Source: a virus (taxonomy: Duplodnaviria; Heunggongvirae; Uroviricota; Caudoviricetes). Taken from it: a stretch of DNA of 64,000 nucleotides. The notes under the pieces were generated by a model. It saw nothing but the letters and a program-made list of their open reading frames with translations, was not told where the DNA came from and did no database searches. This document shows positions 14,129-14,238 of this stretch, one piece after another. How positions within the stretch are numbered: the stretch's first letter is position 1; each line of letters opens with the position of its first letter. The stretch lies in IMG/VR virus record IMGVR_UViG_2974540528_000001, positions 33,169 through 97,168 of that record; one strand, written 5' to 3'. Both the position numbers and the translations under genes were made by a program.

Positions 14129-14238
14129 TGGAGCAGGGTGGTGGAATCTAACCACCTATGTATTCTCCACCGCACGTATGTAGCGGGGATATTTTCAGGT
14201 CTGGATGGACCTCGCGGTTGACAAACCGCCTACCCTGC
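14129..14238 (-). ncRNA. unusually long (about 107 nt) tRNA-like RNA
   Basis: 7-bp acceptor helix GCAGGGT/ACCCTGC with discriminator and CCA, D-arm GCGG-TTTGTCAA-CCGC, T-arm-like GGTGG-TTAGATT-CCACC, and about 38 nt extra containing a CCGC/GCGG hairpin. Confidence 0.3.

Follow-up and report, generated by a model that had tools for sequence, protein, structure and literature searches.

Several groups of transfer RNAs (tRNAs) depart from the canonical cloverleaf. Bacterial tRNA-Sec (selC; Rfam family RF01852) has a D-arm with a stem of 6 base pairs (bp) and a loop of 4 nucleotides (nt), UGGU in the Rfam consensus, together with a long extra arm, a six-layer anticodon helix and an 8/5 acceptor/T branch of 13 bp. 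An acceptor/T branch of the 8/4 or 9/3 type is the defining trait of allo-tRNAs, which combine a tRNA-Sec-like D-arm (long stem and tetraloop) with a long variable arm, a lengthened anticodon stem, G73 or U73 and many anticodons, UAU and readers of stop codons among them; part of the group works in translation, another part apparently does not serve this purpose, and phages encode some of them (Mukai et al. 2017, NAR; PMC5389517). The nev-tRNAs of nematodes, class II (variable-arm) tRNAs with Gly or Ile rather than Ser or Leu anticodons, derive from tRNA-Leu, are charged with leucine and decode in vitro (PMC3333845). Phage tRNAs can also evade defence: T5 tRNAs resist or compete for PARIS AriB (tRNA-Lys/Thr/Asn; PMC12409363), and T5 tRNA-Tyr acts against retron Eco7. 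Here, we analysed a 64,000-nt stretch of virus DNA (the window; positions 33,169 to 97,168 of IMG/VR record IMGVR_UViG_2974540528_000001) and characterized a 110-nt tRNA-like RNA, called X below, on its minus strand at 14238..14129. X represents an undescribed, widely conserved family of non-canonical tRNAs among the Sec-like and allo-like tRNAs. Across 1,201 bases queried, the window was 100% identical to Klebsiella phage vB_KpnM_BIS47 (Vequintavirinae, Mydovirus; BIS47 below).

Predicted fold of X

The locus had been noticed in an original prediction, most parts of which were borne out. The 7-bp acceptor helix, the discriminator and the encoded CCA are all present, as is the T-arm-like hairpin with A at position 56, and the extra segment with a CCGC/GCGG hairpin, put at 38 nt, measures about 40 nt. 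The D-arm given as GCGG/CCGC does exist, but its stem comprises 6 bp instead of 4 and carries the 4-nt loop UGUC. The anticodon arm, the tRNA-Sec type of the D-arm, the compensatory change of G19 to U and the wide conservation had not been seen. In RNAfold, X adopted a cloverleaf that carries an additional arm and consists of exactly these elements (-46.7 kcal/mol, z = -4.95; 0 of 200 shuffles folded as well), and fold and homologs agree with the earlier suggestion of a tRNA with a large extra arm. The features of X are listed from the 5' end; AG links the acceptor stem to the D-arm, and a single G links the D-arm to the anticodon arm.

14129..14238, minus strand: whole X, 110 nt including CCA (fold z = -4.95; covariance model 106.2 bits; 30 distinct homologs)
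14232..14238, minus strand: 5' strand of the acceptor stem, GCAGGGU (positions 1-7), pairing with 14133-14139 over 7 bp
14214..14229, minus strand: D-arm of the tRNA-Sec/allo-tRNA type, 6-bp stem GCGGUU/AACCGC with 4-nt loop UGUC (100% paired; 3 pairs changed on both sides)
14221, minus strand: D-loop U at position 19, tertiary partner of the T-loop A at position 56 (14149); alignment columns 18:90 covary
14197..14212, minus strand: anticodon arm AGGUC-CAUCCA-GACCU, with a 6-nt loop, or an 8-nt loop (CCAUCCAG) if the C:G pair opens (stem covaries; loop class lineage-specific)
14205..14206, minus strand: loop positions 33/34 (AU in BIS47), an apparent variation hot spot at which close relatives differ
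14190..14196, minus strand: 5' junction GAAAAUA, with GAAAA nearly invariant (columns 43-47 invariant in 24 sequences; GUAAA in the Schitoviridae copy)
14166..14189, minus strand: variable-arm hairpin UCCCCGC-UACAUACGU-GCGGUGGA (variable regions of homologs folded alone)
14157..14165, minus strand: 3' junction GAAUACAUA (AAUACAUA invariant in 26 of 30 aligned versions)
14140..14156, minus strand: T-arm GGUGG-UUAGAUU-CCACC (pair 51:63 changed on both sides; canonical T-loop UUCGAUU in most lineages)
14129..14139, minus strand: acceptor stem's 3' strand, ACCCUGC, discriminator U73 (14132) and encoded CCA (14129-14131), from sequence and homologs

The variable region spans 40 nt in BIS47, and the extra segment ranges from 31 to 41 nt across homologs. 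By eye, neither a conserved pairing between the 5' and 3' junctions nor an internal promoter (hexamers at the correct spacing) was found within X.

Covariation and selection on the structure

To measure the conservation of the helices, we used a MAFFT alignment of 24 sequences, in which all 540 of 540 cells of the 23 pairs were standard pairs. The original prediction had named missing helix conservation as one of the findings that would speak against it. Ten pairs (64 cells) were changed on both sides, and no shuffle attained the observed covariation score; when the partners were slid by 1-3 columns as a control, pairing fell to 35-49%. RNAalifold independently returned the same helices and cloverleaf. 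In the acceptor stem, pairs 3:70, 4:69 and 6:67 were changed on both sides, while G1:C72 was present in 22 of 24 sequences and C2:G71 in all 24; the anticodon stem covaries as well. The pairing extends to the tertiary fold: columns 18:90, corresponding to positions 19:56, are G:C in 16 sequences, U:A in eight and mixed in none, so that the T-loop UUAGAUU goes with the D-loop UGUC, and UUCGAUU with UGGY. The change of C56 to A is thus matched by that of G19 to U and the Watson-Crick elbow pair is kept, which argues for a true L-shaped fold, although this double change may be one historical event.

Folded alone, the variable region formed a hairpin of 5-8 bp between the junctions in 15 of 16 homologs, with sequences unrelated between lineages. 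The exception was an IMG/VR contig (L021), in which the predicted stem pulls in the 3' junction; the Justusliebigvirus copies form a perfect 7-bp stem. The invariant junctions GAAAA and AAUACAUA that frame this freely varying hairpin are inferred to form either an enlarged core against the long D-stem or a protein site. We consider it almost certain that X is a real, conserved, structured tRNA-like gene.

Homologs and their annotation

A BLAST search with X alone as query matched 170 phage records; a second search matched 223, and in each about 60 records covered at least 80% of X. Copies were examined in Mydovirus, Seunavirus, Avunavirus and Vequintavirus, and further ones came from viral and metagenome contigs picked up by motif scans. 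With a covariance model based on 24 versions, X was confirmed in Henunavirus (Hena1), Justusliebigvirus (Stephanstirmvirinae) and the Schitoviridae phage UTK0002. This resulted in 30 distinct versions scoring 74-118 bits, from Vequintavirinae, Stephanstirmvirinae, the one Schitoviridae phage and metagenome contigs. In the window, the model found X at 106 bits (E about 1e-24) and no second copy. The motif was missing from 185,579 species-representative genomes, and the element from 5,426 E. coli genomes and from plasmids. A loose gapped motif scan of viral contigs gave about 120 loci, none of which was scored by the covariance model; the 12 read by eye were chance matches without tRNA-like context, mostly inside apparent coding sequence.

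In Salmonella phage UTK0002, an N4-like podophage, X lies unannotated between tRNA-Ile and tRNA-Asn (L164, 1501-1608). This copy is 88-89% identical to those of Erwinia myophages, which implies horizontal transfer of X between unrelated phage families.

GenBank records treat X inconsistently: as nothing at all, as tRNA-Lys, tRNA-OTHER, tRNA-TERM(tta or tca) or tRNA-???(atcc), in Hena1 as 'tRNA-sup(tca)', or as small 'hypothetical proteins'. The latter, exemplified by CPT_Mydo_197/198 over X and the adjoining spacer in Proteus phage Mydo (L002, 2040-2241), are gene-calling artefacts across RNA genes and occur in other records too. The BIS47 record itself has only a 'hypothetical protein' at the 110-amino-acid open reading frame (ORF) 13843..14175. 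This ORF, already suspected to be spurious, lies on the minus strand, runs through tRNA-Leu and matches relatives only over RNA genes. The paper founding rV5 lists six tRNAs and does not include X, the papers on retrons and Schlafen proteins use Vequintavirinae merely as test phages, and we found no description of X in the literature on Vequintavirinae tRNAs, tRNA-like phage RNAs, expanded anticodon loops or the Hena1, phi92 and rV5 genomes. Phages of the rV5, phi92 and PVP-SE1 types rank with those most often sequenced and most used for therapy and biocontrol, and in the matched records X is unannotated, contradictorily labelled or translated into fictitious small proteins.

Anticodon loop classes

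The 30 versions share a single scaffold and fall into four lineage-specific loop classes:

NCC class: Mydovirus and Seunavirus, including BIS47; loop C-CNNCCA-G; U73 (one C73); CCA encoded
UCA class: Henunavirus, Justusliebigvirus, UTK0002 and three contig lineages; loop (C/U)AUCAAA; U73; CCA encoded except in Justusliebigvirus
UUU class: rV5-like phages; loop UUUUUAA; A73; no complete CCA (CCU, CAU)
UAU class: Av-05-like phages; loop UUUAUAA; U73 or C73; no CCA

Three of these classes resemble the loops of host tRNA-Gly, tRNA-Sec and tRNA-Lys. For the comparison we used the E. coli glyT, lysT and selC sequences, each 100% identical to the annotated genes. The glyT arm UCAGC-CUUCCAA-GCUGA and the arm AGGUC-CUUCCA-GACCU of X in contig L031 have the same closing pair, and the loop of X is one nucleotide shorter; likewise, the BIS47 loop CAUCCA is closed by C:G as is CUUCCAA in glyT. 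The lysT sequence GA-CUUUUAA-UC corresponds to GA-UUUUUAA-UC in rV5-like phages, and the selC loop CUUCAAA to CAUCAAA.

The BIS47 loop has UCC at the anticodon position and A37, with A33 in place of U33. Within the NCC group, C32, C35, C36, A37 and G38 never vary, while positions 33/34 are AU, AG, CG, CU or UU; contigs L006, L027 and L031 are identical across 109 nt except for these two positions. A crude count placed three of nine minimum changes at these two positions out of 71 core sites (P about 0.002, in a test selected once the data had been seen), which is suggestive of a variation hot spot. In X, strong selection maintains the body while the anticodon is exchanged from lineage to lineage, the opposite of what is normal for tRNAs.

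Relationship to known tRNA families

X has several traits of a canonical tRNA (an acceptor stem of 7 bp, a T-stem of 5 bp, a T-loop of 7 nt and the elbow pair between D-loop and T-loop), but in BIS47 it lacks the 7-nt anticodon loop with U33, while the purine at position 37 (A37) is present. The BIS47 copy was not called by ARAGORN and had no match to the tRNA family RF00005, either at the gathering score or at E values up to 10; the rV5-type copy reached RF00005 with 35.5 bits (threshold 29). The further Rfam searches suggested originally also stayed without an assignment. The only permissive match at the locus was to tRNA-Sec, with 23.2 bits (E = 0.074; gathering score 47), and the lone tmRNA match in the window was a 10.5-bit fragment elsewhere, with no ARAGORN tmRNA call. 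The UCA-type X scored 39 bits against RF01852, inside the range of 30-40 bits given by phage tRNA-Ser. X shares with tRNA-Sec the 6-bp D-stem, the 4-nt UGGY loop, the long extra arm, the six-layer anticodon helix and, in most lineages, a CAUCAAA loop close to CUUCAAA. In contrast to tRNA-Sec, X has a 7/5 instead of an 8/5 branch, U73 instead of G73, A33 and, in BIS47, the anticodon UCC instead of UCA. On score, branch and discriminator, X was therefore not classed as a tRNA-Sec.

The allo-tRNAs resemble X in the D-arm, the long variable arm, the lengthened anticodon stem, the discriminator and the range of anticodons. X differs from them by its 7/5 branch, the invariant 7- and 9-nt junctions around the variable hairpin, the 6/8-nt loop in the BIS47 lineage and its occurrence in virulent enterobacterial phages. 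We rejected membership because an 8/4 branch is impossible: A8 faces C65 (26 versions) or A65 (four versions) in all 30. X is not a class II tRNA-Ser or tRNA-Leu either, having C2-G71, U73 and a variable hairpin that, in contrast to class II, is set between stretches of 7 and 9 unpaired nucleotides. Like the nev-tRNAs, it combines a variable arm with a Gly or Ile rather than a Ser or Leu anticodon, but it has Gly-type determinants instead of those for Leu (A73) or Ser (G2-C71, G73). No special similarity to the tRNA-Gly of the same phage was seen, and a recent duplicate of that gene was therefore discarded. Standard tRNA finders overlook the X family, whereas the covariance model built here detects it cleanly.

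Aminoacylation identity elements

In bacteria, glycine identity depends on G1-C72, C2-G71, U73, C35 and C36, lysine identity on the UUU anticodon and A73, serine identity on G2-C71 and G73 with a variable arm, and leucine identity on A73 with D-loop determinants (PMC9976931). The BIS47 X sequence carries all five of the five glycine elements. In the rV5-type X, UUU and A73 are both present, and A73 was found only together with UUU. Thus, features relevant only to a charged RNA are conserved or co-switched in X. X is likely processed to a CCA-ended RNA. Judged from the identity elements, the chances that it is aminoacylated appear evenly balanced; the BIS47 copy would then probably be glycylated. 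The retained elements would point equally to a charged, possibly decoding tRNA.

Proposed function and alternative explanations

The overall best explanation, which we hold with rather less than even confidence, is that X is a non-canonical, L-shaped tRNA-like RNA that is charged and serves as a substitute or competitor for a host tRNA targeted by nucleases. X would be co-transcribed from the promoter-like site at 14520-14492, released by RNase P and 3' trimming as the neighbouring tRNAs are, and folded into a shape whose enlarged core has the A-rich junctions packed on the long D-stem. In BIS47, it would be charged by the host GlyRS, because the whole bacterial glycine identity set is present. 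X would thus be a structurally exotic stand-in for a host tRNA attacked by anti-phage tRNA-targeting enzymes, acting either as a cleavage-proof substitute that sustains translation or as a competitor that occupies the effector. The loop of each lineage would imitate a host tRNA, namely Gly(UCC) minus one nucleotide in BIS47, Lys(UUU) in rV5-like phages and the Sec-like UCA form in phi92-like and Hena1-like phages, and the fastest-changing nucleotides 33/34 would flank the usual cut site of anticodon nucleases.

PrrC-type nucleases cut the 33/34 bond. An anti-nuclease role fits the host-like loops of the lineages, the hot spot at 33/34 and the RNA ligase, phosphoesterase and NAD-salvage genes nearby (see below). 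RloC excises nucleotide 34 (PMC2610378), phage tRNAs have been proposed to evade anticodon nucleases via loop mutations (PMC10264068), and allo-tRNAs with a similar D-arm and variable arm function in E. coli translation (PMC5389517). The T5 tRNAs mentioned above are likewise phage versions of nuclease-targeted tRNAs that differ near the cleavage site and are possible competitors, and the rV5-type X copies the tRNA-Lys(UUU) loop together with its two closing pairs. However, the T5 tRNAs are otherwise canonical with point changes, whereas X has a different architecture, an odd loop length in BIS47 and a putative link to defence. X may help the phage to cope with host enzymes that attack tRNAs, and on these grounds we regard an anti-defence substitute or competitor as a tentative assignment, slightly on the improbable side.

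Several points weigh against this explanation. The function proposed for X is read from its sequence. With a 6- or 8-nt loop lacking U33, ordinary triplet decoding by the BIS47 copy is doubtful. A canonical tRNA-Gly(UCC) is already encoded by the phage (12837-12913), so that there seems to be no need for a substitute unless this tRNA, too, can be cleaved, and we know of no nuclease specific for tRNA-Gly or tRNA-Sec that acts on these phages. A33 is kept in the UCA class over at least five lineages, which suggests a constraint other than the ribosome or a race to escape nucleases. The hot spot at 33/34 consists of few events, with a crude P value from a post hoc test, and the coupling of A73 with UUU is a single evolutionary event. 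The Av-05-type copies have no CCA (one of them has G1.U72) and the Justusliebigvirus copies have no encoded CCA; charging would therefore need CCA addition or may not be universal. Finally, the invariant junctions are left unexplained.

In an extended form, which we consider unlikely as a whole, X and perhaps the preceding tRNA-like gene (Y, see below) would be phage 'tRNA surrogates': charged, L-shaped RNAs with an enlarged core, whose loops are retargeted in each lineage to the host tRNA attacked by local immune effectors (Gly, Lys, Sec-like). They would serve as substitutes that cannot be cleaved or as decoys of high affinity, with an arms race over 33/34 at the scissile site. In a sharper variant, the extra loop nucleotide may be a spare from which the phage RNA ligase rebuilds a 7-nt loop after attack by a wobble-excising nuclease of the RloC type. 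If X is indeed a charged surrogate or decoy, it represents a new structural class for phage tRNAs as counter-defence tools, and its compact natural scaffold (7/5 branch, Sec-type D-arm, tolerant variable hairpin) could be used for orthogonal tRNA engineering.

X could instead be a dedicated recoding tRNA, an option to which we assign a low probability. The ancestral UCA form would then be an opal (UGA) suppressor for programmed read-through, the 8-nt NCC form would read GGN(N) as a quadruplet/+1 frameshift or odd glycine decoder, and the UUU form would be a phage tRNA-Lys. The 7/5 branch, CCA, A37 and the 7-nt loops in three of the four classes are in favour of decoding, as are the suppressor label of the Hena1 copy and the rV5-type score above the Rfam tRNA threshold. 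Anticodon loops of 8 nt are a hallmark of classical frameshift-suppressor tRNAs, such as sufD from tRNA-Gly. In E. coli, allo-tRNAs of comparable build place amino acids at both stop codons and sense codons (PMC5389517). Furthermore, a UCA-type metagenome contig of 152 kb (L033) also encodes a tRNA whose anticodon is CUA (amber) at 7862-7934, at the edge of the stretch examined, which ARAGORN called 'tRNA-Pyl'; two stop-codon-type anticodons in this phage may hint at read-through or recoding. However, U33 is missing as a constant feature in the UCA and NCC classes, where A33, C33 or U33 occur, and the would-be fourth anticodon base varies in near-identical phages (AUCC, AGCC, CGCC, CUCC, UUCC), a misfit with a fixed programmed site. 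The phages are annotated with the standard code, and no in-frame UGA or +1 site was identified, although no search for such sites was made.

Similarly doubtful is a tRNA mimic without a role in translation, in which X binds, titrates or is used by a specific protein (SelA, GlyRS, a TacT-type GNAT toxin or a phage protein reading the junctions) and acts as a regulatory or sponge RNA off the ribosome. The invariant single-stranded GAAAA and AAUACAUA around a hairpin of free sequence resemble a sequence-specific binding or tertiary site, the 6-bp/4-nt D-arm is the element recognized by SelA (PMC7609411), and recognition by TacT depends on U73 together with G71 (PMC9976931). Numerous allo-tRNA(UAU) species show no activity in translation and adjoin toxin-antitoxin loci, and T4 RNA C and RNA D (rnaC, rnaD), which have a location analogous to that of X, set a precedent for a phage tRNA cluster encoding small stable RNAs whose role is unknown (PMC3014915, PMC9697503). 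However, no partner protein was identified, no protein gene is consistently adjacent to X, and a single fixed protein partner fits poorly with a switch in both anticodon class and discriminator from one lineage to another.

A role as processing punctuation only, with the tRNA shape being an RNase P and 3'-end signal that separates the neighbouring tRNAs and the long hairpin spacer, is very unlikely. The upstream gene does lie 2 nt away and the 164-nt hairpin does begin 2 nt downstream, but such a signal has no need for identity elements, conserved lineage-specific anticodon loops, an encoded CCA or invariant junctions, and in rV5-like phages and UTK0002 X occurs without the spacer, flanked by ordinary tRNAs that can be processed by themselves. 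Least probable is a decaying tRNA pseudogene or the small-intron tRNA that the original prediction had considered: X is missed by tRNA finders, has an abnormal loop length and lacks CCA in Av-05-type copies, but neutral decay is excluded by compensatory changes in every helix and the tertiary pair and by conservation over three phage taxa, while the insert lies in the variable region and not in the anticodon loop, is kept as a covarying hairpin in 30 of 30 versions and matches no Rfam intron family, and bacteria, to our knowledge, have no splicing system for short tRNA introns.

Genomic setting

Between 9.5 and 17.3 kb of the window, ARAGORN found 24 tRNA genes, every one of them on the minus strand; Rfam confirmed 21 at the gathering score. 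X is the third gene of a minus-strand run in the order tRNA-Thr, tRNA-???, X, and begins 2 nt past the CCA of the preceding gene, Y. The gene order around X differs among genera. The flanking features are:

14492..14520, minus strand: sigma-70-like promoter TTGAAA-17-TAAAAT upstream of the tRNA-Thr/tRNA-???/X unit (consensus scan only; by itself no evidence of function)
14241..14315, minus strand: Y, tRNA-like gene with the 6-nt loop ACGAUA (ARAGORN 'tRNA-???')
13965..14128, minus strand: long hairpin spacer of 164 nt that separates X from tRNA-Leu and begins 2 nt past the CCA of X (minimum free energy -53.7 kcal/mol, z = -3.72)

Y has G73 and CCA, and its loop lacks U33. Its counterparts in Seunavirus have 7-nt (AAGAUUC, ACGAUUA) or 8-nt (ACAGAUCC) loops that share the GAU core and also lack U33. 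Elsewhere, the slot holds tRNA-Arg(GCG) (4MG and GAP31) or an HNH endonuclease ORF (Ro1), and in K54lambda the gene is missing. The pattern is like that of X: the body is conserved and the loop length drifts.

The spacer occurs in relatives as at least four unrelated sequence types of about 190 nt, the ends being complementary in each (e.g. AACATTTTATGTACGGG...CCCGTACATAAAATGTT). These types are spread as a mosaic over the genera, and the spacer is absent from rV5-like phages and UTK0002. Candidate identities are a processing stem of the RNase III type, a small RNA with structure and a mobile insert of small size.

Rfam matches to 'Plastid-ycf2 5'UTR' at 13800-14397 on the plus strand and at several other loci (15-41 bits; gathering score 65.7) are antisense to ordinary tRNA genes; they score below gathering and were taken as model artefacts. 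A further tRNA-like gene missed by ARAGORN lies at 13801-13879 on the minus strand (Rfam 34.9 bits). It has the loop CUUCUAA (UCU, Arg), CCA and a good T-arm, but the D-arm is reduced to a replacement of 4 nt, and an additional segment of 20 nt precedes the T-arm. The corresponding slot in relatives holds a canonical tRNA-Arg(UCU), labelled tRNA-OTHER in one record. In Proteus phage Mydo (L170, 78000-104000), which is syntenic with the window, genes for an RNA ligase, a putative phosphoesterase, a Sir2-like protein, a ribose-phosphate pyrophosphokinase and a nicotinamide phosphoribosyltransferase lie beside the tRNA cluster, a set that looks like a counter-defence toolkit for tRNA repair and NAD salvage.

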